From: Candidatus Micrarchaeia archaeon
GTDB lineage: Archaea; Micrarchaeota; Micrarchaeia; Anstonellales; Bilamarchaeaceae
Reading direction: 5' to 3'
DNA: 64,000 nucleotides
NCBI GenBank assembly: GCA_046331685.1
Contig: JAXLQI010000003.1
Location: forward strand, 102,960-166,959
A program made the position numbers and the translations under genes. Below, in pieces: positions 13,927 to 46,153 of this stretch. How positions within the stretch are numbered: the stretch's first letter is position 1; the number at the start of each line of letters is the position of its first letter. The notes under the pieces were generated by a model that ran no database searches, was not told where the DNA came from, and saw only the letters and a list, made by a program, of their open reading frames with translations.

Positions 13927-13930
13927 AAAA

Positions 13931-14038
13931 CGCCTTGACCGGGATTCGAACCCGGGTCGCGAGAGTGACAGTCTCGTATGCTAGACCACAGAGCGCCCTG
14001 AGCGGTTTCAAACGCTGGGGGCTCTACACTATCAAGGC
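13931..14038 (-). tRNA. tRNA-Asp(GUC) with a putative 35-nt non-canonical intron in the D-loop
   Basis: The 7/7 acceptor stem GCCUUGA/UCAAGGC pairs across 108 nt. T-arm CCGGG-UUCGAAU-CCCGG. Anticodon arm CGAGA-CUGUCAC-UCUCG. Removing 13989-14023 gives a 73-nt cloverleaf with D-loop AGUGGUCUA. Confidence 0.7.
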
Positions 14039-22869: not shown

Positions 22870-22994
22870 TCCCGTCGGCCTGACTTGAACAAGCAACCTC
22901 ACCGTTTCCGCCTTTTGGAAAGGCGGCCCAAAACTCGTCAAACCGAGTAAAGGCAAAACTACAGCGGTGCGCTCTACCATTGAGCTACGACGGG
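22870..22994 (-). tRNA. tRNA-Tyr(GUA) with a 53-nt canonical intron at 37/38
   Basis: Acceptor CCCGUCG/CGACGGG. D-arm GCUC-AAUGGUA-GAGC. Anticodon stem CACCG/CGGUG with loop CUGUAG|intron|A. T-arm GCUUG-UUCAAGU-CAGGC. Confidence 0.8.
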
Positions 22995-30347: not shown

Positions 30348-33300
30348 CTACGGTTTCCTTAAAGCCCGCTCTTTCAGCAGGAGCATGTAAACGAACGAAT
30401 TGAAAACCGATAATGGATCATGCGTCTCGACATTATAGTAATCCTTCGCCCCTTTGATGAACGACCTCTGGTCGCCGCAGGTTTCGATCATATCCACATC
30501 ATCCCCGGCGACCCCCACGTGGGGCAGGTACTCGTAACCCGGCGCCACCCAGTAATAAGAGATATCGACATTCACCCGCTTGCCGTATTTCACCTCCAGC
30601 AGGGCCTTTGTGAATGGCAGGAGGGTCTTGTAGCCGGTATCGACGAGGACTCCGTCGAAGACCTTCTTCTTCGACGGGTCGGTTATCCCGCTCTTGGCAA
30701 GATAACTGAGCAGTTTTTCGCAATTCGCTTTGAACTGCGGATCCATATGCATCGCGCTCTTGATCTGCAGCCGGAGGCTGTTCATGAAATGCCCGAACAG
30801 GTCGGTCTGCATGCTTGCCACCGTAGCCGTCTTAGGGTCAGCAGAAGCCTTGAATACCGAATAGGCATACTGGTTGGCCTTGAAGACCATATCCGAGATG
30901 TTATGCGCATCGTTCTCGAAGAAATCCTTGCCGAGGGAGGTCCTGGTTATCAGCGCGCCCTTGGGCATCTTATGCCCTTTCCTGCTCGCTATCGTCCCGT
31001 CGACCACCATGAACGCGGCTCCATCCCTCCAGAGGTATACCCTGGACTTGTCCGGATAATGGCTGACGATCGCATCTGTGGACAGGAAGACCCTCTCCAC
31101 CACATGCTCGAGGGGACTCACTCCGAATCCTTCAGTGATGGGTATCTGCTTGTCTATGGCTACGCTCTCGACGCCGAATATCCCGGCGTTCTTGTTGATT
31201 ATGAGCTGGAGCTGGGCCTTCGAGAGCTTCTTGGCCGTGTGTTTCGTCGCGAAATCCATCAGGGCTTTTTCGAGTTCGGCCATCTTCTTGACATCCTTGA
31301 ATGAATGCCCGATCGTGAGCAGGTCCTCGGGTACCGACGATTCCAGATCCGCCCTGAAGCTGTCGATGCTCTTGAACCTGCTTTGGGCCTTGAACTCGCT
31401 CTCGACTAATCTGCTATATGCTACATCCGGCGATTCTTTTTCAACGGGTTTGGGGGCAGGGAGCTTCGGTTTCATCCCTGATCTGCTCAGGCGGAGATGC
31501 TCTGTAGCGATCTCGATGGTCGTCCAATCCGGATGCTGGTCCTTTATTATCAGCATCTCGAAATAATCCGAGCTCACGACCATGAAACCCGTGATCGCTG
31601 CTTTCCCCAGCTTGTCGAATTCCTCGGCGAGCCCCTTCACCCGGGCCGCGTCTTCGATTGCATGCCGCTTTATCTCTAGCTCCCGCTCATAATAGATGAC
31701 CCTCGACTGGCGCAGGGTCTCTTCCTTGACCGCGTTCCCGCCGTGATCGAGCTTTTCGGCGATTTTCTTCACCGCATCGCGATATTCGGGATAGTCCTTG
31801 GTCACTTCCGCCAGGGTGAACCCTGCCTTCAGATTCTCGACGAAATGCTCGAGGGTTCCGGCGATCTTCCCGACCCTATCCTTGGTCATACCGCCGCCGA
31901 CAAGATCCTCAATGCCCTCAAGCATCCTGACCCTCGGGCTTTTCCTCGCAGGTATGCCCACCCTCTCGGATTTGTCGCCGACCGTGATGTCGAATTCGAA
32001 CGCATCGATTTTCTCAGACATACTAGTCATGATCTTCGATTTCCCGGCGAATACCATGCCAGGTGGCAGGACTGTATCAGGCGCCGCAAGCAACTCATCA
32101 GCGTACGCTGAAGGTTCTGTGATCAGTTCTGATTCTTTGACCGCCATAGGGGTCTTGGAGATCTCTTTCGGACCGGCGCTCTTCTCCTTCGGCGGCACGA
32201 CCGGCGTGATCAGATCCTCTTCCGTGACAACCATGGGCGTCTCTGAGATCTCCTTTGGTTTGAAGCCTTTTCCGGTCGCAGCTGGTTCTGGCCCTTCCCC
32301 CCCGGGTGGCGGGGGCAGTGCGGCCGGCTCGGCAATCTTGGGCGCCGGAAGTTTCCCGGTCTTGGCCGCTCCTCCCTTCCCTGCGACAGTCCCTTCGGCC
32401 GGCCCGTATCTCAATTCTTCCCAACGCTCGTTGATGAAGTCGTTCAGGCCGCTGACCGGCCTTTTCTTGCCTAGGTACCAGATGATGTCCAGGTGCAGCT
32501 GCCTGACAAGGTCCCGTGTCCCGGGAATGACCTTCCCAGGCAGGCGTATGACGACGAAATGCTCCTCTTTTTGGGTTTTGGTCGCGTCCTCATTCGCTTC
32601 CTTGGGGCTGACGTCCCCGGTGTGCGTTTTCAGGTACTCGTGAATGGGGATAACCCGATCATAAGCTACCACGACCCCCTCGTTTTTCTGTATCCCTGCC
32701 GGAATCTTGACGTGGATGTCATACTCTCCGATCTCCTTCATGCTTTTCGCTCCAAAAGGCATATCATAGCTCATGACGCCATCAGTGCCTACATGGATTC
32801 CACGGGGGTCGTTTGTGGTGAGCCTGTCGAAATATCTGATGCCCTCTGCCGTCTCGGCATACCCCTGGAAATCGAAAGTCTTTGCAAGGCCTTTTTCCGA
32901 CTTTATCGCGAAAAGCTGATCGTATTCTTCGCCCGAAAGGAGCGGCAGGCCGTTATGCATGCGGCCTTTCCAGCCTCCTGCTTTTACCAATGCTTCTGCC
33001 GGCGTCTCCTCGGGAGCCATCTTCGGGGGTGCCGCAGGCTCGGTTTTTTCGAATCCCGTTGGAATGGGTGCTTTCTTTGCCAGCTCTTCCACGGACGCTG
33101 ATTCAGGCACCGGAACAGGAGGCGCTTTCTTGGCCGGAGCGGTCTTCTCCACCACCTCTTCGGGGGGAGGAGCGGGTTTCTTCGCCAGCGGCGTCTTGGC
33201 CTCTTCAGCTGGAACGGGCGGCTCTACAGCGAGCGCCTTTTTCTTCCCTAATGCAGGGGTGGCCTCAGGCTGCTTCTTCGGCGGTTTGGCCGTGAACTCC

Positions 33301-36300
33301 TCGGCGCCTGCGGCAAGGGGCAGTCCGGCCGGAGTCGCCACCTTCTTCGCCATAACCGGCGTCTTATCCTCTTCGGTGCCGATCGGTGTTTTCGCCGTTT
33401 CTTTTATCCTGCGCTCGACGGCGCCCTTCAGCCCCTCGACGTATTCAGCCTGGTCACGGCGTGCTGCATCCATCAGCGCCAGTATCTCGTCGCCGTAGAG
33501 ATGGACCCGTCCATCGACCCTCTCGACGGTCCGGACCCTGCCCCCGTGGATGAACAGGGAGCCCACTTTCGGGGCATTCGGGCTTGTCGTGTCGAAGCCG
33601 AGCCCGAAGGGCTTCCCTTCGTGGGCTTCGACGATCGGTTTCACAGGGCTCTTCAGGTCGGACGGGGCGAGCTTGTCGGCTTTGAGGTCCAGCCCGGCTT
33701 TCTCTCCTAGCAGCTCTGCCATCATGGCTTTCGCGGCCGGGACCTCACCTTGGAACAGGTCCTTCCCGTTCCCCATCTTGATGGACGCCGCCTTGTCGAG
33801 CGCAGAGGCCATGTCGATGAGCATGCCGCTCGTTGCATCAGCGAAATCCCTGTTGAAGTCGGTGAAATCCGGTTTCCCTTCCTTGGATCCGATCCTGGCC
33901 CCTATGCCGTCCATGTCTATCGGCTGGAACGTCAGCTCTACCTCGCCGCTTGCGCGCCGCACCAGCATCACTGTGGTGTTCCGGTCGAAACGGTCCATCA
34001 GCAGGATCCTTCTCGAAAGCTCGTGATACGTGTTCCAGGCCTTGAATATCTTCTCCCTGCCCTCTTTCGTCTGGGCTAGCTTGTAGAACATCGCCGCTGC
34101 GGCGTTGTCGGCGTCAGGCTTCTTCAGGACCTCATCCCTGAACATGGCAACCCCCAGGACTGTCACGTTCTCCGTCTTCCCGTCCGATGGCAGGCTCGCC
34201 ATGACCTTCTTGCCTTCGTAGGCTTTCACCAGGGATCCGTCCGGCAAGGTTATCGTGGTTTCGGAGTGCCCTGTTTTCGGGGATGCCAGGTCATGTATGT
34301 CCAGCGATATCCCGTAGTCCTGCATCAGCGGTTTTCCGTCGACCATCAACCCTGTGTCGTATGCATACCCGTGCAGGGTCTCGGGCGGGACGAGGCCTTT
34401 GGAAGCTGCCAGTTCCTCCCCGAATTTGACCGGGAGCATATCCTCGGGCTTCACGAATATGCTCCGCCCGTCCGACATCTTCACCTTGAAGATGCCCCTC
34501 AACCCGCTCAGGGGCTCGACGCTGCTTATCTTCTTGCCGCCGAATCCCGGGATCGCCGCGATCCTCGCAGGCAATCCGCCCCTCACGATCAGATCCAGGA
34601 ATACCTTGACCTTGGAGTCATATTCGAATGTCTCGCTCTCGAGCCGTATCCTGTGGGGCCCGACCTTGTCCGCCAATTCGGCTTTTTTCGGGTCCCCGTC
34701 CGCCATCCCCGCGACCTGGCCCTCCGTGTGCTCGACCCATCTCTTCAGCTCGATGATGCCGTCCCGGTCTTTCCTGAAAGACGAGATGTCGATCCCGAAA
34801 GCGTCAAGGACATTCAGCCTTCCTTCCGATCCGCCCTCACCGTAGATCTCTTTCATCAGGGCCGGGTCCTGGCCGTTCTTCTTTGTATAGGCGGCGATCG
34901 CTCCGAATTCCTCCCCGGGAGGCAGGGCGGCCTTAGCCTCATCGATTTTTTTCAGGTGCCCCAGCTCTTTCGCGCCCCTGAACCATTCCATCGCCATGCG
35001 AAGCTTCATCATGGGATTGTTTTCCAGGATCATGTGGTCCAGCTTCCAGGCCAGGTACGGATCGGTCGCCCTTATGCTGTCGATGATGAACTTTCCTGAG
35101 GGTTTTGTGAATATGCTACCGCTGAATTCGGCTAGGCCCTCGGCCGTCCCCCCTGCTAGGAGGTGCGAATACGCTTTTCCTATGGACGTGCTGACGCTCT
35201 CTCCAGGCGCAGCTTTGAGCAGGAAATCCGCGATGACGGCCCGGGTGACCGGGTCGGCAGATTCGAAGACGTTTTTCACCAGGCCGTTCTTCCTGATGGC
35301 TTCGACCGAGGACGATCTCGGATCGCCGGTCTTGGCCCATTCTGCGAGCCTGGCCTCGGCTTCGCTCATCGATATGTCGCCGCGCATCCTGAGCGAGCCC
35401 TCGGCCACCTTGAGGAGGTCTGTGAGCTTCGGGCTTCCGCTTTCTATCTCGAGCCTCGCCGCCGCGATCCCGTCGCTGTCCACCCCCTCTATGTTCTTCT
35501 TGTATTCCGAGATCTTCTCCATGGCCGGCGGGGGTTCCTTCGGTTTCGGGACAGCCTTGGACGAGATGCCCTCCGCCTCTGTCCAGGATGCAGGGTCAGT
35601 CCTGCCCTCGAGCTTCTTCGCGGCTTTCCGCAGGGCCACTATGTCGGACTCCACGGCATCCGCTTCGGCATGCTTGCCTTCAGCGCGGAGTATCGACGCT
35701 TGGTCGGTGAGCTTGTTCGATCTCTCGAATAGCATCTCCGAAGGCGTCTTAGGTTTGGCAGACGGGACGGGTTCGGGGTATTTCGCGGCAGGGCTAGGCT
35801 CCTTCATCGGCGCCGGTTCGATCGGTTTCGCGGTGCCAGGTTCCACACCGCCTGGTTTGATCCCGCTTTTGAGCGTCGGTTCTATTGCCACAGGTGCTGC
35901 GACCGGGGCGGTTTCCATCCCAGGTATGGTCGCGGCCATCTCCATCCTGATGCTGTCCCAGGTCTTCGCTGCGAACCCTCCCGGGTCCTCCGAGTTTGTC
36001 TTGTAGAGCTCTTTGAACACCGTGGCAGCATCGGCGGTCAGGATCGTCCTGCCGTCCGTGTCCATCGGCACGTTCTTCTTCCCGTTGATGAAATTCTTCC
36101 CTTCGATCCTGAACATCTCATCGACATCGTGGAGCTCTGCCGCGGCCTCGGCCGGGGCTTCCTCTCCCTTCAGGAACGCCTCCCTCCTTTTAGCGAGGGC
36201 TGCCTTCTGCCCCATGGTGAGCTTTGCGTTGAGGCCTATGCCTATCGGGGTCCCGGCATTGGAAGTGAGGGCCTTCTCCACCCCGTCAACGAATCCAGGT

Positions 36301-39300
36301 GATTTTCCTATCTCCTCATGCCAGGCTTTCGCGCCTTCCTTGATGCTCGAAAAGGATTCTGTGAAAAGCGTCTTATACGTCTTACCGGACGGCCCAAGGT
36401 CGGTCAGCTGCATCTGGAGCAGCACATCCATCGTGCCCCTCAATTCGGTCCCGTACGATTCGTGGAGTTCCCCGAAATCCAGCTTCCCCCCGCTTTCTTT
36501 GGCCAGGAACGCCGCGCCGGAATCCGTGTCTATCCTGCCGAACCTGAGGACCATCGCCCCCTTCTCATCGGATACCACCAGGTGCCCGAGTTTCTCCAGG
36601 TGGGCGGCATCCTCTTTGGAGACCCTTCTGGTCATCGCCCATATGTTCCCGTGGTGGCCGTCTGAGAAGCCGACGCTCATGAGGCCGGTCTGGGTGTATC
36701 CGTACTCCTTCATGACCAGTTTCCAGAACAGCTCGGGATTCTCGGCCCTCATCTTCTTCAGGGCAGGATTCGCTTCGACGAACTTGGAGAACTGCTCGAT
36801 CGCCATGGCCGACTCGGTCTTCTCGTGGATGATCTTCCCGCCGGCCTTGGCGTCGCCCTCATGGTATCCCATGTGCTGCATGATCCCGAATCTGGCCCTG
36901 CGCCCTCGGTCGAACAAAGACAGCTCTTTGCCGCCGTGGCCGGTTATCACTTCCGGGGCCGCGATCCCCGCATGTTTTTCCGCAAGCGTCGAGCCCAGCT
37001 TTTCTGCCGAGAGATCCTGCGCCTTCGCTATGAACGCGACTTTCTCCTTCCCCGGCGTCTCGACTGTGATCTCGAAGGCTCCCTGGGCGGCGAATATGAA
37101 CCTGACTTTCTTGACCTTGCTTCCTGCCGGGATCTTCTGGTTCGCGAAAGTTATCTCGCCTTTTCCTATCATGGAGGCGAGATCGCTGGTCAGCAGCCCG
37201 ATGGCTCGCGTCGTCGCGCTTCCTGCCTCCAGCTCTATCCCGGCGCCATGAAGCGCGTCGCTGATTTTGTTTGTAAGCTCCCAGACGTCCTCATTCTCCA
37301 GCGCTGCCTTTTCGATTTTGGCCTTGAGCTCCGGAGCCTTTGACGGTTCAGGAGCTAGCTTGGACAATGCTTCGGAGTTCGCGATGGCACTGAGACGTAG
37401 ACCGATATCATATTTCCCTTTCTTCTCAAGAGCGTCAAGGGCCTTTGCCAGGTTCTCAGGCTTCCCGATCCCTTTCTTCAGGAGGGCTCCGGCGAGGTAA
37501 TCCTCATCTGCCGGTTCCCGTCCCTCGCTCTCGGCTCGTCCTTTCGCGAACTCGGATGCCGCGATATCCACCGGATTCTTCGAAGCTTTGAGTTTGAGGC
37601 TTATCGCCTCTTTTGTCATCTCCCCGATTAATTCGAATGCGGCTTTCTCCAATGGCGCTCCCTGTTTCGCCGCTTCCTCTTTGATGGCCGCTGTGAACTG
37701 TTCATCAAGTTCCGTCGCAGGCGGTTTGTTCCCTTTCGCCATCTCTGCATACGCCTTGGCGGCAGCCTTCTGGCCTTCCACTGCCTTAGCGGCGGTTTCG
37801 GGGCTTACACCTTCGCCCACAAGCTTTTCGATCGCATTCTTCCCGACCTCGTCGAGCGCTTTCTCTCCTGTCGATAAGACCGGTTTCGCTTCGATAGTCT
37901 GTTTCACCGGCTCTATCTTCGGCCCGCCTGACTTCACATCCCTTGCCGCTTCCATCCCGAGCTCGTAGGAAAGATCAGCAGGCGAAAGTTCGGAAGCCTT
38001 GATGACTTTGAAGAATTCCGCCTTGCCTGAGAATTCGGGCGGGACCTTCCCGCTCTTCGAATACTCATTGTAGGCATCGGTGAGCGATTTCGTCCTTGCT
38101 TCGGTTTCGGAAGGTGCGATTTTTTCCACCGCTTCAGGCTTTGGCGCTTCCGCAACTGCTGCCTCGGGTTTGGTCACCCCACCGGCTTTCTTCTTCGCGA
38201 GCGCTTCTTTGAGCTTCGACAGCGCCTCCCCCTTCACGAATGTCTTCGCAGGGGATTTCGCCTCGCTGAAAGCCGCCTCCGGGGACTTCCCCTTCGAACG
38301 CGCTTCGGTGTATCTGATGACGAAGTCAGGTGATGGGGCGGTCGCCTCCTTGAAAGCCTCGGCCGGCCCCTTTCCTTCGTTGCGGGCTGACGAATAAAGG
38401 AGGTGAGGCATCTCGCCTGCGGTCATCATCTTGCTCAGGTGGCCTGCCTCCAGGTCGAGCATCAGCTTCTTGCTCTCGGGAGGGAGACCCTCTGCCGCTT
38501 TGCTCATCTCCGAGATCCCAGCCCTGACCTCGATGGGGTTCTTGCCGGACATTACCTTGGCGTAGGATTCACCGGCGCCGCCCATGCTCTTGCGGAACCC
38601 TGCCAGTTCCTTTGCAGCCGCGTGCTCCTCCACGGACATGAACTCGCTCCGGAATCCGAACAGGATCTGCGTGAACTGCGAAGCGCGGGAGCTGTATTTC
38701 GGCACCCCTCCCTCATGGACCGAGAGGGCCATCCTCTTCGACACGCGCGCCTGCGCCCAAGGAAGAAGGACGGAGGTCGAGGCCCCGCTCATTCCGGTGA
38801 AGACAAGCCCCTGCCAGCCCATCTCGCCTTTCTTGTAAGCATCGTAGATCTTGGGCGCCTGGAATACCAGGAATTCGCCGGCCCCTCCGTAGAACATCGA
38901 TTTCTCAAGTCCCCACGTTGCGCCTTTGTAAGCGTAATACCCAGCTTTGGCTAACCCGCCCGCGGGGGCTTCCGCCGCGGCAAGGAAAGTCAGCCCCTTC
39001 AGCGCTGCTATCCGGTGCCCAATCGGCACGACCGCCCCGACAGCGCTCAGGCCCGCCCTGATATATAATTCGGTGCTCCATTTCCCTGATCTCTCGGCCT
39101 CCTCATAGGCTTCGGCCACGCCCTTGACGCCGGTGACGACGAAATACGCCCCTCCGGTCGCAGCTCCGAGGATCATATCGCCTGCGAACGTCCCTGCAGC
39201 CTTCCCGAAAGCGTAGCGGGCGCCGATGTCGCCCATTTCGCTCTTCAGTCCCTTGGTCTTCGCGTCAGAATCGGATATCTCTCCCTTGTCGGTGAAAGAG

Positions 39301-42300
39301 ACCATCCCGCTGGACTTGAGCGTCGCATCCGATCCGCTGATGTCGCCAGCGATCGCGAGGTCTCCGGCTTTCTTGGACAGAATCATCCTCCCGAGGACGA
39401 CGGCCACGAACTCCTTCTCGGTCTGGACGCCGGTCCCTGCCACCGATGGGGTCTTGGTCCCGAAGCCGATAGATATGTCGTATCCTTCCACGGTCGGAAC
39501 AAGGACATTATCAAGCAGCATATCGAAGTTCTGGGCCGCCTTCATCAGCCTCTCCCTCTGGTCCGGGGAGAGCCTCTCCAGCGATTCGAATCTCAGGCCG
39601 TCGACCGTCTCCTTGGCGTCCAGGCCCACCCTCCAGAAGAAGATATGGCCCGCATCTTTCCCCGCCTTCTCTATGTCTTCCTTGTTGCCCTCCTTGGCAT
39701 CTCCGAACATGTAGGATGAAGTGAGCAGCATCTCGGACCTGCTTACCGACATCACTTCCTTGCCGAAGTTGATTTTCCTCGGGACGCGCCTTCCATGCTC
39801 GTCCACAGCTGAATAGACGGATATGTAAGTGCTTTTCTGGGGGCCGGTCTTGAAGTCGCCGGTGGTGTGCTCGTAAACGGTCGCCGTGACCTCTTTGTTG
39901 GTCTTGAGGGCAGTGAGGAATGTCTCGTCGTTGTCCAGGGCGGTCATCGCATCCTCAAGGCAGATCGCGCTCATCTCCCTCGCGGCTGTCGATGTGTCGT
40001 ATTCGAGCTTGAAATACGGGAGCTTCATCCCGGTCCTCTTCTCATACTCCTTCGCGATCTCTGCGAAATCCTCGGCCTTCTCCAGCCTTCCGAACTCAGA
40101 AAGATCGCCTTTGAGCATGAACCGCTTGCCCTTCTCTATGAACGCTTTTGCGAACTCCCTTGCGGCCGTCCTCTCCTTCTCCTTCCCCACCGTTTCACGG
40201 TATTTCTTGTCTGCCGCTTCCAGGACCGGAGGATTCTTCTCTCCTGCGAGGATCGAGTCCACAGCCTTATGGTTGGCGCTTGCGGTTCCCTCCCAATCCT
40301 TCTCGCTCCGCTCGTAGCTGGCGCCGAGCTTGTCGAGCGGGGATTTCAGGGCCTTGTTCCTCTCATCCCTCAACTTCACGGCATCGTCTTTCTCTACGAC
40401 CCCATACGGGGCCTTTTCCAGGAACGCGCCATCCACGCCCGCCTTTTCATCACGGGCCTTCCACTTGTTGAAATCAGATGTGGCGGCTTTGATCCCGTAT
40501 CCCTCGGCCATCTTGGCCTTGAACATGTCAGATTCGAGCGTCCTGAATCCTTTCCTCGCTCCGATCACATCTCCTGCCTCAGCGGCATCGCTGAGGGCCA
40601 TGAGCCTCTTGCCATAGAACGATGTATTGAAGTATGGGAGCCTGCCTTTCTCGACGACGTCCTTGATGGAGCCTTTCTCATACGCTCCGGCCCCGGGCAC
40701 CGGGATGGATTCCAGCATCAGCCTCGAAAGGAGCTTCTCCCTCGCTCCGAGCCCGTCCTTGCCCGGAGGGATCATCGCGAGCTCTTTCTCATATCTGTAC
40801 CTGCTGTTCGGGTCAGGTATCAGTCCGACCAGCACTCCGAGCTCAGGGTTCCCGATCGTCCCACGGTCTCCTCCTGCGAAGAACTTGATCCCGTTGTCGG
40901 CATAGCCCTTCTTTATATCGTACTCGTCCAGGTGCATCTTCGCCCCCTGGAACCTGATATCGAAATTCGTGTGGACCTTCGCCGAATATGTCTCGGCATC
41001 CGCGAACCGCTCGGACCAGTTGAGCGAGATGACGGTGGAATGCTTGGTCTTGTAGCCGTTGAGGTCGAGCCATTTCTCCCCGCGCTCGTCCGTGGTCTTG
41101 ACGCCCTGCGATCCGGTGAGGTCCTCATACAGCTTCTGCAGTTTTGCCGGATCGTCGCCTGCGGCCGCAAGGCGGTCGCCTTTGCCGTGGTATGAGACGA
41201 GGTCGTTGTAGAGCGCTTTCAGCTTCCCCTGGTCTTCGCCCGCTTCTGCGTACCTCTCTGAGAAGACCTCCTTCATGGGCTTCTGCCCTTCCCTGAGGTA
41301 AGTCTCTTTCGGGAAGTTCGCGATCATATCCCTGACCAGGAGCTTTGTAAGGACGCTCTGGACCCTGCCTATGTCCTTCTTGAAGGCCTCCTGCTCGAGC
41401 CATATCGCTCCGTCACGCTGTTTCTTTATCTTCTCCTCACGGGAGACCAGCTCGCTGCCCGCTGCGTTCAAGCCTATGCCCCGCTCGACAAGCTTCTTCT
41501 TCCTCTCGGCGGTCAGCGGCACCGGCTTCGAGTCCGCCCCGATGAGCTTCTCGCCTTTCTCATCGGCATCATGGCCTTCGCCGATCGCGAGGAACGTCTT
41601 CGCGGCAGCGTCGAGCTCGGCCCTCCCGCTCTTCTTGTTTATGGTGTCTATCCTGGTGACGCTCTTGTGGAGCTTGGCGAGAGAATCGGCCGCCGCGTCC
41701 GCGCTCAATCTCTTATCATTTCCGCTCGCTATGAGCGATGTTATTTCTTGGTCTAAGAGTGACTTGTATAAGGCGTTCCGAAGCTCGTCGGCCTCCTTCG
41801 CCTTGCCCTCTTTCCCGAGCGAATCCGCTTTCTTGAGAGCGAGATCGACCTTCTCCTTCATCTCCGGCGGAAGCCCGCTCGAGAGTTCGTCGGTCCTCTT
41901 CCTCACGAACGCCGGCCCGGCGTCATCCGCCGCTTCGTACTCCTCTTCAAGGTCGACCGACATCAGCAACTCGGATGTCCCTTTTTCGCGGAGGGCCGCT
42001 GCCCTGCCGACCGAGCTTGTCATGGACACGAAGTCCGAGCCTTCCGAAGCATATTTCTTCTTCATCGCCTCGCGGTCCTTCTCGGCCCCTAGTATCGCGA
42101 TCCCTTTCGAGTCGCCGGCAGCTTTTTCCTGGAGGAACGAATCCCGGGTCAATTCGTGCCCCAGCTTGACCGCTGATTTAATCCCGGCTGCTTCGACAGC
42201 GTCTTCCAGCTCTGCCTTCGTCGGTTCCCTTCCGAGCTCTTTCTTCAGGCTCGCCTCGGTCTCCGCCCTCTTCTCCTTCCCGAGGGCTTCAGTCACCGAT

Positions 42301-45300
42301 CCTCCTGCGAGTATGGCTTTCGCGAGCGGCGCGTCTATGGCGCCTTCGGGCGGCTTCCAGCCTTTCGGTCCGATATCGAGGATCCTTTTGCCTCCAAGGG
42401 TATTGTTGGCAGAATATTCCCCGAGGTATCTCTCTGCGCGGACCATCCTTTTCGTGCGTTCTGAAGCTCCTTCAGGGCTCAGCTTGCCTTCATCCATGGC
42501 CGCGTCCTTGGCGTACATCGCCGCCATGTCGAATATTATCTTGGCCTCCTTCTTCAGCCCGGAGCCCGCGGTCCTGATCGCAAGGTCGAAATACGCCTGG
42601 GCATTCGTCTTCATCGCCGGATTCGTTATCTTCGCCTCCAGCTCGGTCCTCTCCTTGTAGATGGATAAGACGAGCAGGTCCGGATCGTTGAAGACAGGGA
42701 TGCCTGGCAGCTTGGAGTTGGCCTCTCCCACCCTCGCTATCGCCAGCACCCTTTCCCGGTCTTCTTTCTTCACGCTGAGATATATCTCGGCGATGTTCTG
42801 GAATATCATCCCGTTCTCCAGGTCCCCGGACATGATCCTCCGCGCAGAGCTCCCCAGCATCTCCAGGACCGCTTCCTTCTGGTCCTTGGGCGCGGCAGGA
42901 TTGAGCATCTCGCTATACGACTTGACGAGTTTCTCCATCGCCTTGACGCGTGATAACTCTTCCCTTGCCGCAAGATCAGCGATCGTCAGCTTCTTCTCCT
43001 TGAGGTACTTCTCGACCGCGCCCTTGAACTCCGGGTCCTCTGCCATCTGCTTCTTTATCTTCGCTTCAGAGGCCGCGATATCCTCCTTCGATATGCGGTC
43101 TTCGCCCTTGACAAGGCGGTCCTTCTCCTTCTTCAATTCACCGATCAGCCAGCCGAGCTCAGCTTTCCCGGGAGCCTTCTCGCCCATCGATTTATGGGCC
43201 TTGGTCAGCTTGATCAGGTTCCCTTCCAGTATGAGATAGCCCCGGGCGATGACCTCGGCAAGCTCGGGCTTCTTCGATATCACGGCGATGACCTGCTTGA
43301 TCTCATTCTTCTGCTCTGGAGTGCCTTTGGAGAATCGCAGAGCGAGCACCGCGATTGAGTTCATCGCCCCTTTATCCCAGTCCTTCAGGTATCCTTCCAT
43401 CCCCTTATCGAATATCGCTGCCGTCTCGCTGAGAGCCGGCTCTTTGATGCCGGACAGTATGTCCTTCCTGACCTTCCCGACGAAACCCAGGATCGTCATG
43501 CCCTTCTCTATCGCCTCTTTCGTCGCCTTGCCCGGTGCCTCAAGAGGCTTGAGCGCCGCTTCTATCCCATCTTTGATCTCCTTGGGCAAGGTCTTATCGA
43601 GAAGGATCTTTTTCAGTCCGGAGACTATCTCGGCGGCGAGTTTCAGTTCATCCGCCGCAGGAGCTTTGGCTTCAACCGCTGCGGGTTTGGGGGCAGTGGG
43701 TTTGACGGCCGGTTCTTTTGGTTTTGCGACCGGTCCTGTAGGGACTACAGTGGGGGGAGTAACCGCCGGCCCTTTGGGCACTGCAGCCGGAGCCTTTGGA
43801 GCCTCAGGAGCAGCCTTCTTCTCCTCGGGCGCAGGAGCGAGCTTGAATCCAGGCCCTTTTGAAGGGGGCTGCATCTTCGGCAATGGAGTGTGGTACGGTT
43901 TCCCTTCCTCCAGCTTGTCCGCTTTCTTCTCGCGCTCCTCCTTGCCCTTCCCTGCGTTCCTGAACGACTCGGCGAGCGCCTTTACCCTCGGGTCGTTCCT
44001 GTCCTTTATCCCGAGGGCCCGCATGGCGGCTTCTTCGACGCTGAACCCCCTCCCCACCAGCCACTCCATGTTGCGGAGGTTCATCCCATCTTCGAGATTG
44101 GAAGACATCTTCTCAAGGGCGCCGGCGACCTCCTTGTCCCCGCCTTTCTCCGCGTATTTCTTCCCCAGCTCGTACTGCTTCACGGCGGTATCCATCCCGC
44201 CGCCGCGGAGCACGCAGTCCAGGGCGCGTCCGAAGATCTTCATCGCGCCGTCCTTTATCTCCTTGGCTTTGCCGGCGAGCTTGCCTTCCGAGTCGAATAT
44301 CTTGCCGACAAGCTCCGAGGCGAACGTCATCTTCTCTAGCTCGGCGATCGTGGCTGGCGGTTTGTCCTTGAACATCTTCGCGATCGCTTCGGCTTTCGCT
44401 TTCAGTATGCTGTCTTTGAACCCGGCAGCGGCTTCGGCGGCTTTCTTCTGGTATTCCGCCCCGACAGCCGAGACCGCCTGCGCCACGGTCTTTTTCCTCT
44501 CGGAGAGGTCCTTGCTTATCTCATCGAGCTTTTTCCGCAGCTCCCCTTTGGCCTCGCTGTGCCTGGCGAGGATCGTCTGCTGGAGCTTCGCTGTCTCGAT
44601 GAGGCTCTTGACCGCCTCGGCGCGCTTCTCCTTCGTCGCGCCGGCCTTGCCGAATGAATCTATCAGGCCTTTGACCCGAGGGTCGTTCTTGTCCTTTATG
44701 CCGAGGACCCTCATCGCGGCTTCTTCCGCGCTGAGGCGCTTCGCCGGATCGGTGTTGCTGACATGCCTCTCCATGGCGGCTATGTTGTGCGCCAGGCTCA
44801 GGGCGGCTAGGCCGCGGGCGAAGACCGCGACGCTTTCCCTGGCCTCCTCGCCGGTCTTGTCCTTCAGGATCTTGAGGGCGTTCTTGACGTAGTCTATCTT
44901 CTCTTTCGTCTCCTCCTTATCCTCTTTCCCTGTCTCCTCCTTCTTTTTCTTCTCTTCCTCGAGCTTCTTCTCCAGCGCTTCCAGGTCGTCCTTGAGCTTG
45001 CCTAGCTGCTCCTTCGCGGATTCCTGCATCGCGCTCATCATGAGGGCGCTCACCATCCCCTGGAAGGCGAGCACGGTCGCGGTCTCCGGGCTTCCGCCGC
45101 TTATGGCCGATTCGACAGCGCTGGTCTGCCGGTTAATGCCGTCCATCCGTCCGGCATGGGCCTCCACATGGGCATTTGCCTCGTCGGTGTTGCCGAGGGG
45201 GTGGCTCGACATGGTGAGGACTTCCTTCTCCACCCTGGCTGCCAGAGTCGGATCTGCGCTGAGGGCCTCAGGATGGTCGGCGATGTGCTCGACCGCGTTC

Positions 45301-45812
45301 AGGGTCGCCCTTCCCAGCGAGAGATGCGCCGCCCTCTCGGTCGGGTCGTCTGAGAGCCCCGCGAAGTTCCAGAAATTGTTCCGGAACATGTCTATCGTGC
45401 CCTGGGGGGCTCCTGACGCCTCGAGGATCATCTCGCCCCTGATCGTCCTGCCGAGGCCGATGATGGCCATCCTGAGGTCAGCCCCGTCCCTCTCGGCAGC
45501 CGCCATATCCCCGGACTTGATGTGGCCTTCCCTCCGGAGAGCGATGTCTTCGATCGTGGCGAGCTCCCTGCCATGGGTGGACCGCATGTTCTCGGGGACG
45601 ATGGCCTCCACCCTTGATCTTATCCCTGCGGCATCGGGAAGGCTGGTCCCGAGGCTTCCGGCAGCGCTCGAGAACCGGTCGAGCATGACCCTCGTAGAGG
45701 CGTCGACGGATCCTATGTTGGCTTTCGAGGCAGCGAGACGGTCGGGTGTCAGGTCGAGCCCGCCGAATTGAGGGTGGCTCGATCCGGGCGTATCCATCGT
45801 CTTCTGCGCCAT
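30348..45812 (-). CDS. Giant protein of about 5,150 aa, of unknown function. It is rich in K/E/A low-complexity and probable coiled-coil sequence, with internal repeats, Pro-rich linkers, a central hydrophobic cluster and globular regions with no family I can name.
   Basis: A single uninterrupted 15.6-kb ORF in a GC-rich genome. The track start at 45998 overlaps the upstream gene. The Met at 45810-45812 (MAQKTMD) lies 5 nt after the upstream stop. There is no N-terminal signal peptide. Confidence 0.85.
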   Translation of the reverse strand: MAQKTMDTPGSSHPQFGGLDLTPDRLAASKANIGSVDASTRVMLDRFSSAAGSLGTSLPDAAGIRSRVEAIVPENMRSTHGRELATIEDIALRREGHIKSGDMAAAERDGADLRMAIIGLGRTIRGEMILEASGAPQGTIDMFRNNFWNFAGLSDDPTERAAHLSLGRATLNAVEHIADHPEALSADPTLAARVEKEVLTMSSHPLGNTDEANAHVEAHAGRMDGINRQTSAVESAISGGSPETATVLAFQGMVSALMMSAMQESAKEQLGKLKDDLEALEKKLEEEKKKKEETGKEDKEETKEKIDYVKNALKILKDKTGEEARESVAVFARGLAALSLAHNIAAMERHVSNTDPAKRLSAEEAAMRVLGIKDKNDPRVKGLIDSFGKAGATKEKRAEAVKSLIETAKLQQTILARHSEAKGELRKKLDEISKDLSERKKTVAQAVSAVGAEYQKKAAEAAAGFKDSILKAKAEAIAKMFKDKPPATIAELEKMTFASELVGKIFDSEGKLAGKAKEIKDGAMKIFGRALDCVLRGGGMDTAVKQYELGKKYAEKGGDKEVAGALEKMSSNLEDGMNLRNMEWLVGRGFSVEEAAMRALGIKDRNDPRVKALAESFRNAGKGKEEREKKADKLEEGKPYHTPLPKMQPPSKGPGFKLAPAPEEKKAAPEAPKAPAAVPKGPAVTPPTVVPTGPVAKPKEPAVKPTAPKPAAVEAKAPAADELKLAAEIVSGLKKILLDKTLPKEIKDGIEAALKPLEAPGKATKEAIEKGMTILGFVGKVRKDILSGIKEPALSETAAIFDKGMEGYLKDWDKGAMNSIAVLALRFSKGTPEQKNEIKQVIAVISKKPELAEVIARGYLILEGNLIKLTKAHKSMGEKAPGKAELGWLIGELKKEKDRLVKGEDRISKEDIAASEAKIKKQMAEDPEFKGAVEKYLKEKKLTIADLAAREELSRVKAMEKLVKSYSEMLNPAAPKDQKEAVLEMLGSSARRIMSGDLENGMIFQNIAEIYLSVKKEDRERVLAIARVGEANSKLPGIPVFNDPDLLVLSIYKERTELEAKITNPAMKTNAQAYFDLAIRTAGSGLKKEAKIIFDMAAMYAKDAAMDEGKLSPEGASERTKRMVRAERYLGEYSANNTLGGKRILDIGPKGWKPPEGAIDAPLAKAILAGGSVTEALGKEKRAETEASLKKELGREPTKAELEDAVEAAGIKSAVKLGHELTRDSFLQEKAAGDSKGIAILGAEKDREAMKKKYASEGSDFVSMTSSVGRAAALREKGTSELLMSVDLEEEYEAADDAGPAFVRKRTDELSSGLPPEMKEKVDLALKKADSLGKEGKAKEADELRNALYKSLLDQEITSLIASGNDKRLSADAAADSLAKLHKSVTRIDTINKKSGRAELDAAAKTFLAIGEGHDADEKGEKLIGADSKPVPLTAERKKKLVERGIGLNAAGSELVSREEKIKKQRDGAIWLEQEAFKKDIGRVQSVLTKLLVRDMIANFPKETYLREGQKPMKEVFSERYAEAGEDQGKLKALYNDLVSYHGKGDRLAAAGDDPAKLQKLYEDLTGSQGVKTTDERGEKWLDLNGYKTKHSTVISLNWSERFADAETYSAKVHTNFDIRFQGAKMHLDEYDIKKGYADNGIKFFAGGDRGTIGNPELGVLVGLIPDPNSRYRYEKELAMIPPGKDGLGAREKLLSRLMLESIPVPGAGAYEKGSIKDVVEKGRLPYFNTSFYGKRLMALSDAAEAGDVIGARKGFRTLESDMFKAKMAEGYGIKAATSDFNKWKARDEKAGVDGAFLEKAPYGVVEKDDAVKLRDERNKALKSPLDKLGASYERSEKDWEGTASANHKAVDSILAGEKNPPVLEAADKKYRETVGKEKERTAAREFAKAFIEKGKRFMLKGDLSEFGRLEKAEDFAEIAKEYEKRTGMKLPYFKLEYDTSTAAREMSAICLEDAMTALDNDETFLTALKTNKEVTATVYEHTTGDFKTGPQKSTYISVYSAVDEHGRRVPRKINFGKEVMSVSRSEMLLTSSYMFGDAKEGNKEDIEKAGKDAGHIFFWRVGLDAKETVDGLRFESLERLSPDQRERLMKAAQNFDMLLDNVLVPTVEGYDISIGFGTKTPSVAGTGVQTEKEFVAVVLGRMILSKKAGDLAIAGDISGSDATLKSSGMVSFTDKGEISDSDAKTKGLKSEMGDIGARYAFGKAAGTFAGDMILGAATGGAYFVVTGVKGVAEAYEEAERSGKWSTELYIRAGLSAVGAVVPIGHRIAALKGLTFLAAAEAPAGGLAKAGYYAYKGATWGLEKSMFYGGAGEFLVFQAPKIYDAYKKGEMGWQGLVFTGMSGASTSVLLPWAQARVSKRMALSVHEGGVPKYSSRASQFTQILFGFRSEFMSVEEHAAAKELAGFRKSMGGAGESYAKVMSGKNPIEVRAGISEMSKAAEGLPPESKKLMLDLEAGHLSKMMTAGEMPHLLYSSARNEGKGPAEAFKEATAPSPDFVIRYTEARSKGKSPEAAFSEAKSPAKTFVKGEALSKLKEALAKKKAGGVTKPEAAVAEAPKPEAVEKIAPSETEARTKSLTDAYNEYSKSGKVPPEFSGKAEFFKVIKASELSPADLSYELGMEAARDVKSGGPKIEPVKQTIEAKPVLSTGEKALDEVGKNAIEKLVGEGVSPETAAKAVEGQKAAAKAYAEMAKGNKPPATELDEQFTAAIKEEAAKQGAPLEKAAFELIGEMTKEAISLKLKASKNPVDIAASEFAKGRAESEGREPADEDYLAGALLKKGIGKPENLAKALDALEKKGKYDIGLRLSAIANSEALSKLAPEPSKAPELKAKIEKAALENEDVWELTNKISDALHGAGIELEAGSATTRAIGLLTSDLASMIGKGEITFANQKIPAGSKVKKVRFIFAAQGAFEITVETPGKEKVAFIAKAQDLSAEKLGSTLAEKHAGIAAPEVITGHGGKELSLFDRGRRARFGIMQHMGYHEGDAKAGGKIIHEKTESAMAIEQFSKFVEANPALKKMRAENPELFWKLVMKEYGYTQTGLMSVGFSDGHHGNIWAMTRRVSKEDAAHLEKLGHLVVSDEKGAMVLRFGRIDTDSGAAFLAKESGGKLDFGELHESYGTELRGTMDVLLQMQLTDLGPSGKTYKTLFTESFSSIKEGAKAWHEEIGKSPGFVDGVEKALTSNAGTPIGIGLNAKLTMGQKAALAKRREAFLKGEEAPAEAAAELHDVDEMFRIEGKNFINGKKNVPMDTDGRTILTADAATVFKELYKTNSEDPGGFAAKTWDSIRMEMAATIPGMETAPVAAPVAIEPTLKSGIKPGGVEPGTAKPIEPAPMKEPSPAAKYPEPVPSAKPKTPSEMLFERSNKLTDQASILRAEGKHAEADAVESDIVALRKAAKKLEGRTDPASWTEAEGISSKAVPKPKEPPPAMEKISEYKKNIEGVDSDGIAAARLEIESGSPKLTDLLKVAEGSLRMRGDISMSEAEARLAEWAKTGDPRSSSVEAIRKNGLVKNVFESADPVTRAVIADFLLKAAPGESVSTSIGKAYSHLLAGGTAEGLAEFSGSIFTKPSGKFIIDSIRATDPYLAWKLDHMILENNPMMKLRMAMEWFRGAKELGHLKKIDEAKAALPPGEEFGAIAAYTKKNGQDPALMKEIYGEGGSEGRLNVLDAFGIDISSFRKDRDGIIELKRWVEHTEGQVAGMADGDPKKAELADKVGPHRIRLESETFEYDSKVKVFLDLIVRGGLPARIAAIPGFGGKKISSVEPLSGLRGIFKVKMSDGRSIFVKPEDMLPVKFGEELAASKGLVPPETLHGYAYDTGLMVDGKPLMQDYGISLDIHDLASPKTGHSETTITLPDGSLVKAYEGKKVMASLPSDGKTENVTVLGVAMFRDEVLKKPDADNAAAAMFYKLAQTKEGREKIFKAWNTYHELSRRILLMDRFDRNTTVMLVRRASGEVELTFQPIDMDGIGARIGSKEGKPDFTDFNRDFADATSGMLIDMASALDKAASIKMGNGKDLFQGEVPAAKAMMAELLGEKAGLDLKADKLAPSDLKSPVKPIVEAHEGKPFGLGFDTTSPNAPKVGSLFIHGGRVRTVERVDGRVHLYGDEILALMDAARRDQAEYVEGLKGAVERRIKETAKTPIGTEEDKTPVMAKKVATPAGLPLAAGAEEFTAKPPKKQPEATPALGKKKALAVEPPVPAEEAKTPLAKKPAPPPEEVVEKTAPAKKAPPVPVPESASVEELAKKAPIPTGFEKTEPAAPPKMAPEETPAEALVKAGGWKGRMHNGLPLLSGEEYDQLFAIKSEKGLAKTFDFQGYAETAEGIRYFDRLTTNDPRGIHVGTDGVMSYDMPFGAKSMKEIGEYDIHVKIPAGIQKNEGVVVAYDRVIPIHEYLKTHTGDVSPKEANEDATKTQKEEHFVVIRLPGKVIPGTRDLVRQLHLDIIWYLGKKRPVSGLNDFINERWEELRYGPAEGTVAGKGGAAKTGKLPAPKIAEPAALPPPPGGEGPEPAATGKGFKPKEISETPMVVTEEDLITPVVPPKEKSAGPKEISKTPMAVKESELITEPSAYADELLAAPDTVLPPGMVFAGKSKIMTSMSEKIDAFEFDITVGDKSERVGIPARKSPRVRMLEGIEDLVGGGMTKDRVGKIAGTLEHFVENLKAGFTLAEVTKDYPEYRDAVKKIAEKLDHGGNAVKEETLRQSRVIYYERELEIKRHAIEDAARVKGLAEEFDKLGKAAITGFMVVSSDYFEMLIIKDQHPDWTTIEIATEHLRLSRSGMKPKLPAPKPVEKESPDVAYSRLVESEFKAQSRFKSIDSFRADLESSVPEDLLTIGHSFKDVKKMAELEKALMDFATKHTAKKLSKAQLQLIINKNAGIFGVESVAIDKQIPITEGFGVSPLEHVVERVFLSTDAIVSHYPDKSRVYLWRDGAAFMVVDGTIASRKGHKMPKGALITRTSLGKDFFENDAHNISDMVFKANQYAYSVFKASADPKTATVASMQTDLFGHFMNSLRLQIKSAMHMDPQFKANCEKLLSYLAKSGITDPSKKKVFDGVLVDTGYKTLLPFTKALLEVKYGKRVNVDISYYWVAPGYEYLPHVGVAGDDVDMIETCGDQRSFIKGAKDYYNVETHDPLSVFNSFVYMLLLKERALRKP

Positions 45813-45817
45813 ATGCT

Positions 45818-46153
45818 TCACTCGGGCCGGATGCCCTCCGCTATCCTGACCAGATCCCGGAGCCTTTGGATGCGGGTCTCGAAAGTATCCGTGAACTTTG
45901 GCTTGCTGGCCTCCCACCCCTTCAGGGCGTCCAGGGCTTTCTGGTACCTCTCGAAATTCTTCGCGAGCTCCGGGGGCTTCCCGCCGGATGCTTTCCATGC
46001 CGCGAGCGCCTCCTCGAGCTGGGCGATCATCTTCTTCACCCGTTCGCGGGTCTCGGCTTCGACCTGGCCGATCGTGGATTCGTTTATCTTGGGGTTGAGG
46101 GCTTCGGCGACCAGCGAATTCTCGTATCTCTCCAATTCCTCTGGACTTGCCAT
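45818..46153 (-). CDS. Hypothetical 111-aa helical protein, first gene of the giant-gene operon
   Basis: MASPEELERYENSL... with charged, helical composition. Its stop lies 5 nt before the giant-gene ATG. Confidence 0.5.
   Translation of the reverse strand: MASPEELERYENSLVAEALNPKINESTIGQVEAETRERVKKMIAQLEEALAAWKASGGKPPELAKNFERYQKALDALKGWEASKPKFTDTFETRIQRLRDLVRIAEGIRPE

Follow-up and report, generated by a model that had tools for sequence, protein, structure and literature searches.

Giant proteins of host-associated prokaryotes have been described from two groups that bear comparison with the protein analysed here. The SPEARE proteins of Nanohaloarchaeota, which like Micrarchaeota belong to the DPANN archaea, are giant and membrane-anchored, for example SVXNc_0300 with 9,409 aa (PMC10266531; Hamm et al., 2019, PMC6642349), and they have a Sec signal peptide at the N-terminus, ectodomains of Ig-like, beta-propeller and adhesion type, and a VirB4/TraG-like ATPase in the cytoplasm (PMC10266531). 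The giant proteins of Omnitrophota are bacterial, measure >10,000-85,000 aa and contain many TM regions together with SecA-DEAD, peptidase and dockerin-type domains (bioRxiv 10.1101/2023.11.21.568195).

The window, by which I mean the whole analysed stretch of 64,000 nucleotides from a Micrarchaeota genome, encodes a giant protein with a hydrophobic module at its centre. Its features are as follows.

30348..45998, minus strand: giant gene, a 5,216-aa ORF counted from the first ATG, with stop codon TAG.
38724..39236, minus strand: central hydrophobic module, residues 2255-2425 (G 16.4%, A 18.7%), the window copy of the family-defining module.
39126..39176, minus strand: H1, residues 2275-2291, MILGAATGGAYFVVTGV, 17 uncharged residues with the TGG turn (KD19 1.30, GES 1.34).
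39075..39104, minus strand: charged H1-H2 loop, residues 2299-2308, EEAERSGKWS, family pattern E..REQ.G[KER]W[TS], with G2305 and W2307 invariant.
38973..39068, minus strand: H2 and its extension, residues 2311-2342, with V2323, P2325 and A2331 invariant.
38853..38897, minus strand: H3, residues 2368-2382, MFYGGAGEFLVFQAP, family pattern GAG.F.YQ.P, with G2372 and P2382 invariant.
38754..38819, minus strand: H4, residues 2394-2415, with conserved G2391 and W2395 at its N-terminal edge (KD19 1.08, GES 1.62).

In the public annotation, MFN7991375.1, the start is set at M63 (window position 45812) and the protein has 5,154 aa. The gene is 15.6 kb long and the genome ~1 Mb, so that it claims over 1% of the coding capacity and is probably important. 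The 5,216-aa protein has no sequence match in Pfam, NCBIfam, PHROGs or the PDB, and no relatives were found on IMG/VR contigs. A viral or mobile origin of the gene was rejected, given the lack of IMG/VR relatives and of a PHROG match and a GC content close to that of the flanking genes. No conserved gene neighbourhood was found when the window was compared with the Bilamarchaeum locus, no secretion genes were found adjoining the giant gene, and neither RNA genes nor tandem repeats were found at the coordinates of the hydrophobic module. By eye, kinase-like motifs (FVK..., DRF.RN, IDMDG) can be spotted at residues ~3850-4030 and a second kinase-like spot (DGHHGN...IDTDSG) at residues ~3110-3160; a profile of residues 3770-4190 is without match in Pfam or the PDB.

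An exhaustive HMMER search with residues 1560-2560 against 1.84 billion representatives returned only seven matches. One is the protein itself, four are homologues of giant or partial length, and the other two are short fragments. All five matches with a named source (the protein itself, P0003, P0005, P0006 and P0007) are proteins of Micrarchaeota (DPANN) MAGs. The relatives are hypothetical giant proteins, the longest of 6,756 aa, and the family spans ~5,200-6,800 aa with a central module of ~170-230 aa. Querying a word index of proteins with the module sequence or with a 5-sequence profile of it gave no match, the list of 8,000 candidates being probably saturated by low-complexity words; a DNA scan for relatives was seeded with a 3-sequence alignment, the 5-sequence one being too divergent. 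Judged from these searches, the family is lineage-restricted and rare, so far confined to Micrarchaeota, and entirely unannotated.

Alignments place the module in every homologue, with 24-30% identity to the window copy over its length; it lies at about residues 1950-2180 of P0003, 2020-2200 of P0005, 825-1050 of P0006 and 1920-2125 of P0007. The family signature runs TGG (H1), E..REQ.GKW (loop), V.P (H2), GAG..Q.P (H3) and GD..W (before H4), although the TGG turn is not conserved in P0007. Among the conserved peptides of the family are ND[YF]R[AF][YQ]D[IM] and REQ.G[KE]W, and the alignments also show APVTGGASL. Ten residues stay invariant whether five module sequences or the whole-length proteins are aligned (G2290, G2305, W2307, V2323, P2325, A2331, G2372, P2382, G2391 and W2395), and a 6-sequence MAFFT alignment retains all of them except G2372. 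G2282 of H1 is invariant in the whole-length alignment, but not in the 5-sequence module or 6-sequence MAFFT alignments. The invariant positions hold over genomes of 43-67% GC and include a Trp at the N-terminal edges of both H2 and H4. The window protein carries the signature module and is colinear with P0003 up to a shared C-terminal domain, which makes it a member of this family of giant proteins. Downstream of the module the homologues vary in domain order and content: Metallophos occurs in Bilamarchaeum only, and the order of the kinase-like motifs spotted by eye is not the same.

The four segments quoted in the original prediction lie where it had put them, at residues 2275-2291, 2311-2342, 2368-2382 and 2394-2415, and composition sets them apart from the rest of the chain. 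In 150-aa windows, G+A peaks for the whole protein in the cluster at 0.373 (shuffle maxima 0.308 +/- 0.016, highest 0.367) and the charged fraction falls there to its minimum of 0.153 (shuffle minima 0.200 +/- 0.015, lowest 0.147), as judged from 1000 residue shuffles. Mean hydropathy also peaks here, with 0.32 at residues 2263-2412 and 0.01 in the next distinct window, but this peak is within the shuffle expectation of 0.27 +/- 0.11. The Gly/Ala-rich cluster is a real, conserved unit of Micrarchaeota giant proteins and the least charged 150-aa stretch of the window protein; its description in the original prediction as the only strongly hydrophobic region does not survive closer inspection. 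Its best 19-residue windows score 1.42, 1.30, 1.08 and 1.04 on the Kyte-Doolittle scale, all below the classical TM cut-off of 1.6, and sites elsewhere in the same protein score equally high or higher (1.46 at 4800-4818, 1.44 at 390-408 and 1.41 at 306-324).

Soluble enzymes of the same genome provide a useful yardstick. CarB reaches KD19 1.66 and GES 1.50, DnaK KD19 1.45, AMP phosphorylase KD19 1.41 and GES 1.35, and M20 GES 1.19, whereas true TM or signal segments of this genome score KD19 1.8-2.6 and GES 1.87-2.23. On GES/TopPred, H1 (1.34) and H4 (1.62) of the window protein exceed the nominal 1.0, but so do CarB, AMP phosphorylase and M20. The Hessa-scale sum is at least 5.75 in the window protein against 0.2-4.4 for the ten clearest helices of TctA, which is encoded in the same window, and Eisenberg <H>21 does not exceed 0.61, against 0.62 in soluble CarB. 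The cluster has just two stretches of at least 17 residues that are free of D, E, K, R and H: residues 2275-2291 (17 aa) and 2393-2417 (25 aa, mean KD 0.64), the latter containing H4 and a 4-aa insertion that the orthologues lack. H2 is broken by R2314, H2328, R2329 and K2334, leaving an uncharged core of 13 aa, and H3 is weakly hydrophobic with E2375 inside it. Simple hydropathy scales thus place the region in the soluble-to-ambiguous range, and nowhere does the window protein have a canonical TM anchor of ~19-21 residues with KD19 at or above 1.6. The window copy is only as hydrophobic as the core of an ordinary soluble protein and is no clear membrane anchor.

The orthologues look different. 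In P0003, P0005, P0006 and P0007, H1 and H2 score KD19 1.43-1.96 and TopPred/GES 1.68-2.06, and their Eisenberg <H> is 0.59-0.69 against a threshold of 0.68. Uncharged runs extend over 27-31 residues in H1 and 21-22 in H2 of P0003, P0005 and P0006; the only run listed for P0007 is of 21 aa. The two segments rank as the top hydrophobic segments of whole proteins of 6-7 kaa, and in P0005, where no other segment exceeds KD19 1.26, they reach 1.96 and 1.91. By contrast, the hydrophobic spots of the window protein at 306, 390 and 4800 have no hydrophobic counterpart in the homologues, and the central module is the sole hydrophobic element common to the whole family. By hydropathy scales, H1 and H2 of the orthologues look membrane-spanning. 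In three of the four fully analysed orthologues (P0003, P0005 and P0006) the TM-grade helices form an adjacent pair. Bilamarchaeum has three TM-like segments, at 1928-1948, 1950-1970 and 1980-2000; with three candidate helices, an odd number of spans is conceivable there.

None of the four complete N-termini in the family carries a signal peptide, their first 70 residues being hydrophilic and charged. In both halves of the window protein, N-glycosylation sequons number 0.11-0.14 per 100 aa and Cys makes up 0.1% of the residues, as compared to 0.33 and 1.0% in cytoplasmic enzymes encoded in the window and 1.24 and 2.9% in its signal-bearing proteins, a small control set of five. Neither the N-termini nor the sequon and Cys content shows the export signal or topology determinants that would allow a large domain to reside across the membrane. 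It had been proposed that the cluster places ~2,200 aa on one side of a membrane and ~2,800 aa on the other; with no signal peptide, an adjacent helix pair in three of the four orthologues and two halves that are alike and cytoplasm-like, a through-membrane anchor that divides the window protein in this way is unlikely.

Structure prediction gave helical models of low confidence. From the single sequence, AlphaFold returned H2-H4 as helices and two short strands in H1 (pLDDT 32); with a 5-sequence MSA the whole module became helical, broken only at the two glycines of TGG (pLDDT 41). The beta-rich core for which the original prediction was to be checked does not appear in these models, but at pLDDT 32-41 they are unreliable and too poor for comparing folds. 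The glycine-zipper core offered as an alternative to an anchor finds no footing. The zipper motif of Kim et al. (2005) is (G/A/S)xxxGxxxG or GxxxGxxx(G/S/T) in a packed helix, conserved among relatives. In the window module the former pattern occurs as GKAAGTFAG, on the upstream side of H1, and the latter adds GATWGLEKS, between H2 and H3; in the five homologues either pattern turns up only once, as GSRIGTAAT inside the variable insert that separates H2 from H3 in P0006. The motif is thus outside the hydrophobic helices and not conserved, and its counts equal the shuffle expectation (1.7 +/- 1.3 and 1.1 +/- 1.1). Residues 2200-2466 have no Pfam match at E<=10, hmmscan of the five module sequences against the glycine-zipper/PT-TG families PF13488, PF13441, PF05433 and PF14449 gave none at E<=1, and module profile searches of NCBIfam, the PDB and, for the window protein, PHROGs were negative. 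An internal duplication of H1-H2 as H3-H4, suggested by eye from TGGA/SGAG and GKW/GD.W, was rejected (hhalign E = 0.73-0.84).

At this point, the best explanation is that the module is a family-specific helical hairpin that contacts the membrane with both arms in the cytoplasm and has been weakened in the window copy, a reading I adopt tentatively and at slightly less than even probability. H1 would be a long uncharged helix kinked at AP.TGG, joined by the conserved charged loop E..REQ.GKW to H2, a second uncharged helix bearing V.P, and H3 and H4 would follow as weaker, Trp-flanked helices. Such a hairpin could tether both giant arms to the membrane from the cytoplasmic side. Because the TM-grade helices are paired and there is no signal peptide, the N- and C-terminal arms would lie on the same, cytoplasmic side. 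Conservation, hydropathy, the missing signal peptide and the make-up of the two halves are observed, whereas membrane insertion, this topology and the tethering function I infer. Against a hairpin anchor, the window protein has no TM-grade segment, its H2 has just 13 consecutive uncharged residues, and even the homologues, at Eisenberg <H> 0.66-0.69, lie only about the 0.68 threshold; the hairpin of the window copy would be less hydrophobic, with H1 shortened and H2 interrupted by four charged or His residues. For this copy a weak, peripheral or conditional membrane association, and not a constitutive anchor, is most likely. What remains of the anchor first proposed is therefore a conserved unit with TM-grade H1 and H2 in the orthologues, but not anchor-grade hydrophobicity in the window copy, arms on opposite sides, or a glycine zipper.

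The main competitor is a soluble helical core, rich in small residues and buried, that plays no part at the membrane in any of these proteins, with the higher hydrophobicity of the homologues reflecting Ala/Gly/Val-rich proteomes and tight helix packing. This is possible, though I consider it doubtful. It accommodates window segments that score like soluble enzymes of the same genome, a hydropathy peak inside the shuffle expectation, homologues that barely reach the Eisenberg threshold, proteins that have no signal peptide and are extremely hydrophilic elsewhere, and AlphaFold models that are helical, though unreliable. However, side-by-side uncharged runs of 27-31 and 21-22 residues with KD ~1.7-2.0 are outliers within proteins of 6-7 kaa, and since such runs also occur in Bilamarchaeum at 43% GC, composition alone does not explain them. 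The invariant Trp at helix starts and the conserved charged loop, moreover, suit an interface better than a core. At the other extreme, the model first put forward would be a TM anchor with an odd number of spans and arms of ~2,200 and ~2,800 aa on opposite sides, much as in SPEARE proteins. Sec-dependent insertion makes the translocation of ~2,000 charged N-terminal residues without a signal peptide implausible, and the adjacent pairing of TM-grade helices in most homologues, the similar and cytoplasm-like composition of the two halves and the complete lack of TM-grade helices in the window copy all point the same way. Although Bilamarchaeum has three TM-like segments and membrane-spanning giant DPANN proteins are on record (PMC10266531), this arrangement is very improbable.

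The hairpin might instead act away from the membrane of the cell that makes it. Hydrophobic hairpins of toxins include TH8-TH9 of the diphtheria toxin T domain, those of the colicin pore domains and the hydrophobic region of large clostridial toxins. By analogy, the module could be a translocation hairpin that is soluble and shielded when made, inserts in a target (host) membrane on a trigger, and delivers C-terminal enzyme-like domains. The roughly central module, downstream of which homologues diverge in domain order and content, the conserved acidic-rich loop (E..E.REQ) and a moderate, 'soluble-compatible' hydrophobicity would all fit, and Micrarchaeota are described as host-dependent episymbionts (PMC5498576, PMC8975820). 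However, there is no secretion signal, no adjoining secretion gene and no conserved synteny, and no sequence similarity to toxin translocation domains was found; I regard such a device as unlikely. The broader analogy, in which Micrarchaeota giant proteins would be host-directed multi-enzyme effectors and the hairpin a new device for self-translocation into the membrane of the host archaeon at the site of contact, is decidedly unlikely. Were it true, these proteins would be an archaeal analogue of the large clostridial or MARTX-type toxins, and the weaker hydrophobicity of the window copy would be a tuning for solubility before insertion. Returning to the membrane-contacting hairpin, the module offers a handle for localisation work and a sequence signature by which further members may be recognised, in genome-reduced, host-dependent archaea whose attachment to and exploitation of hosts are little understood.

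How, then, does this family compare to the known systems? It shares with glycine-zipper and PT-TG domains the hydrophobic helices rich in Gly and small residues and the conserved T-G-G turn, but its hydrophobic helices are without (G/A/S)xxxGxxxG and no hmmscan match links them. With SPEARE proteins it has in common a protein of more than 5,000 aa with few recognised domains, encoded by the largest ORF locally in a genome-reduced DPANN archaeon, and a presumed action at the membrane or host interface. Unlike them, the Micrarchaeota proteins lack a signal peptide, and the hydrophobic element lies at their centre, probably as a hairpin; no sequence similarity to SPEARE proteins was found, nor any SPEARE-type Pfam domain in the window protein, both Bilamarchaeum orthologue ORFs or residues 1-5537 of P0003. 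The Omnitrophota giants likewise come from ultrasmall host- or prey-dependent prokaryotes and have largely unannotated ORFs with uncertainly predicted hydrophobic helices, whereas the Micrarchaeota protein has one central module and no SecA-DEAD, peptidase or dockerin-type domains. As for the toxin hairpins, homology is undetectable and no secretion or receptor-binding apparatus was found, but the architecture is alike: two adjoining uncharged, Gly/Ala-rich helices with a short acidic loop, upstream of enzyme-like domains and embedded within a very large, otherwise soluble multidomain protein.

The giant gene is a single ORF; from M63 onwards its product is identical to MFN7991375.1, publicly annotated as 'hypothetical protein, Candidatus Micrarchaeia archaeon'. 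The gene is flanked by archaeal housekeeping genes (the ribosomal L1/L10P operon, AMP phosphorylase and ribose-1,5-bisphosphate isomerase, aspartokinase, carA, carB and pyrB, geranylgeranyl reductase, and DnaK and DnaJ) and resembles its surroundings in GC content; it thus belongs to the chromosome of a DPANN archaeon and is native there. The gene and other features of the window are as follows.

30348-45998, minus strand: giant gene, 5,216 codons; stop codon TAG at 30348-30350, with an in-frame TGA four codons beyond of no evident significance
43850-44790, minus strand: ~80-aa unit repeated at residues 403-485 and 638-715 (42% identity; core EEAAMR.LGIKD.NDPRVK)
38754-39176: hydrophobic segments H1 to H4 (residues 2275-2291, 2311-2342, 2368-2382 and 2394-2415), followed just downstream of the module by a tandem 28-aa unit (residues 2533-2560 and 2561-2588)
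33400-36700, minus strand: motifs that by eye resemble the catalytic and activation loops of kinases, at residues ~3110-3160 (DGHHGNIW...RIDTDSG) and ~3850-4030 (FVKPED...MDRFDRNT...FQPIDMDGIG)
7797-8714, 8762-9595 and 23041-24087, all minus strand: three Pfam-less ORFs with strongly hydrophobic N-termini, used as hydrophobicity and composition controls; two carry a lipobox-like Cys (LLFGC, VVAGC), which suggests archaeal lipoproteins or secreted proteins
880-994, plus strand: 5S rRNA gene (Rfam, 66.5 bits), the only rRNA gene that Rfam finds in the window
13930-13995, minus strand: 66-nt tRNA-Asp called by ARAGORN, absent at the Rfam gathering threshold
22870-22994, minus strand: 125-nt Rfam tRNA match (52 bits) not called by ARAGORN, probably an intron-containing archaeal tRNA

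The internal protein repeats correspond to no tandem repeat at the DNA level. The kinase-like motifs have no sequence match in Pfam or PDB; those at residues ~3850-4030 are kept in the homologues P0003 and P0005 (alignment A5) as an invariant K, D-R-x-x-R-N and D-x-D.

All four peptides of the original prediction were found in the giant protein, and the cluster they form is the extreme of the whole chain for three properties measured in 150-aa windows. Its hydropathy peak nevertheless lies within the range of shuffled sequence, and the comparison with other proteins encoded in the window places it at the grade of a soluble core.

Table. Composition and hydrophobicity of the cluster (shuffle values from 1000 residue shuffles).
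Mean hydropathy, 150 aa: cluster 0.32; next distinct window 0.01; shuffle maximum 0.27 +/- 0.11
Gly+Ala fraction, 150 aa: cluster 0.373; shuffle maximum 0.308 +/- 0.016, highest 0.367
Charged fraction, 150 aa: cluster 0.153; shuffle minimum 0.200 +/- 0.015
Best 19-aa Kyte-Doolittle window, same genome: cluster 1.04-1.42; soluble enzymes (CarB, DnaK, AMP phosphorylase, M20 peptidase) 1.4-1.66; true TM/signal segments (TctA permease helices, N-terminal signal/lipoprotein segments) 1.8-2.6
Hessa sum, 19 aa: cluster 5.75 or higher; the ten clearest TctA helices 0.2-4.4
Eisenberg <H>21 (threshold 0.68): cluster at most 0.61; CarB 0.62; TctA 0.68-0.78
TopPred-style GES: H1 1.34, H4 1.62; soluble enzymes up to 1.50; true TM/signal 1.87-2.23

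The cluster was thus real and compositionally distinct, yet the description 'strongly hydrophobic' did not hold: its best 19-residue Kyte-Doolittle windows score 1.42, 1.30, 1.08 and 1.04, while three unrelated sites elsewhere in the protein reach 1.41-1.46. On the GES scale its peak (H4) sits above the soluble maximum and below the true-TM minimum. In H2 the longest uncharged stretch is 13 residues, because R2314, H2328, R2329 and K2334 interrupt it.

Neither the giant protein nor the module matched Pfam, NCBIfam, PHROGs or PDB by sequence or profile. When 1.84 billion cluster representatives were scanned exhaustively by HMMER with residues 1560-2560, just seven proteins came back: the window protein, P0003 (6,756 aa, colinear with it up to a shared C-terminal domain), P0005 (6,147 aa), P0007 (2,699 aa), P0006 (1,615 aa, cut by a frameshift, its C-terminal ~200 aa being out-of-frame Arg/Ser-rich sequence) and two short fragments. 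Source look-ups and scans of genomes and metagenomes traced every member with a named organism to Micrarchaeota ('Ca. Bilamarchaeum dharawalense' LFW-283_2, Micrarchaeia bin_281, a Micrarchaeota MAG and a Microflora Danica MAG); one further member lies on a JGI contig (locus L005) whose record gives no organism. No member turned up in IMG/VR viral contigs. The family appears to be undescribed: 'hypothetical protein' is the only annotation its members have, and giant proteins of Micrarchaeota were not mentioned in any text that full-text literature searches returned.

Two orthologous genes are divided among ORFs. In Ca. Bilamarchaeum dharawalense (CABMJJ010000011, locus L001, 18040-18160), one in-frame TGA, with TTG immediately after, splits the gene into ORFs of 2,699 and 3,193 aa; a sequencing error, recoding or a real division of the gene could each explain this. 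Metallophos (PF00149, E = 3e-8), the sole Pfam domain found in the family, lies in the second ORF. The orthologue in a long-read MAG (CAVTHI010000008, locus L004, 4656-20784) is spread over several ORFs that overlap in different frames, a pattern suggestive of indel errors.

The same central module occurs in every homologue: H1 with an AP.TGG kink, a conserved charged loop (E..REQ.G[KER]W[TS]), H2 with V.P, an insert of variable length, H3 (GAG.F.YQ.P), G-D-x-x-W, and H4. G2290, G2305, W2307, V2323, P2325, A2331, G2372, P2382, G2391 and W2395 are invariant in both five-sequence alignments, and all except G2372 in a six-sequence alignment. In the homologues, H1 and H2 are the most hydrophobic segments of entire proteins of 6-7 kaa (Kyte-Doolittle 1.43-1.96 and GES 1.68-2.06, against Kyte-Doolittle 1.2-1.5 for the next best segment of each), with uncharged runs of 27-31 residues in H1 and 21-22 in H2 of P0003, P0005 and P0006. 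Since this persists from 43% to 67% GC, it is not a compositional artefact, and since the remaining hydrophobic spots of the window protein correspond to charged sequence in its homologues, the module is the one hydrophobic element that the family shares. In that respect the right place had been singled out.

The window copy has the shortest module in the family. Its H1 is truncated by a 3-aa deletion and K2292 and interrupted in its N-terminal half by D2274; H2 has gained E2310 and R2314 (spaced i, i+4), H2328, R2329 and K2334; H4 has gained a 4-aa insertion and lost the homologues' Glu, leaving a 25-residue uncharged run. Judged by these changes, H1 and H2 have lost hydrophobicity and H4 has gained a little. 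An internal duplication (H1-H2 and H3-H4) was also suspected, and statistical support for it was absent.

What, then, does the module do? A membrane anchor in mid-protein, as originally proposed, is for the most part unsupported in the window copy. That it would set ~2,200 aa and ~2,800 aa on opposite sides of a membrane is very improbable. There is no signal peptide at any of the family's four complete N-termini (the first 70 residues are charged and hydrophilic), and Sec-dependent insertion is not known to let a downstream anchor move a charged N-terminal arm of ~2,000 residues across the membrane. The TM-grade helices form an adjacent pair in three homologues, with three candidates in that of Bilamarchaeum, and the two halves of the window protein are alike in composition: both have 0.11-0.14 N-glycosylation sequons per 100 aa and 0.1% Cys (cytoplasmic enzymes of the window, 0.33 and 1.0%; signal-bearing proteins, 1.24 and 2.9%). 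Together, these features argue for a single compartment, the cytoplasm, as the location of both arms.

I lean, tentatively, towards a weakened copy of a family-specific, membrane-interacting helical hairpin, by which a giant cytoplasmic protein would be tethered to the membrane with its N- and C-terminal arms on the same side. The window copy probably associates only weakly, peripherally or conditionally. Conservation, hydropathy, the lack of signal peptides and the likeness of the two halves are direct results, whereas insertion into the membrane, topology and function are inferred. A helical core that is purely soluble is a serious if lesser possibility: it suits the hydropathy of the window copy and sits less well with the TM-grade pair of its relatives. 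AlphaFold2 models, reliable neither from the single sequence (pLDDT 32; H2-H4 helical, two short strands in H1) nor from a five-sequence alignment (pLDDT 41; the whole module helical, broken at the GG of TGG), gave no sign of a beta-rich core. As a motif, the suggested glycine-zipper core does not stand: matches to it are no more frequent than chance predicts and are unconserved among relatives. A hairpin of the toxin kind, which would insert when triggered and deliver the C-terminal domains into the host, is unlikely. Tested against what defines the glycine-zipper, PT-TG and SPEARE families, the protein falls outside all three.

Giant proteins are known elsewhere. The SPEARE proteins of Nanohaloarchaeota, also DPANN, are membrane-anchored and combine a signal peptide with an Ig-like ectodomain and a VirB4-like ATPase (PMC10266531), and giant proteins also occur in Omnitrophota (bioRxiv 10.1101/2023.11.21.568195). 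The Micrarchaeota family shares no domains with either and differs in architecture; with a tethering hairpin, it would join them in a wider class of giant membrane-associated proteins of ultrasmall symbionts.
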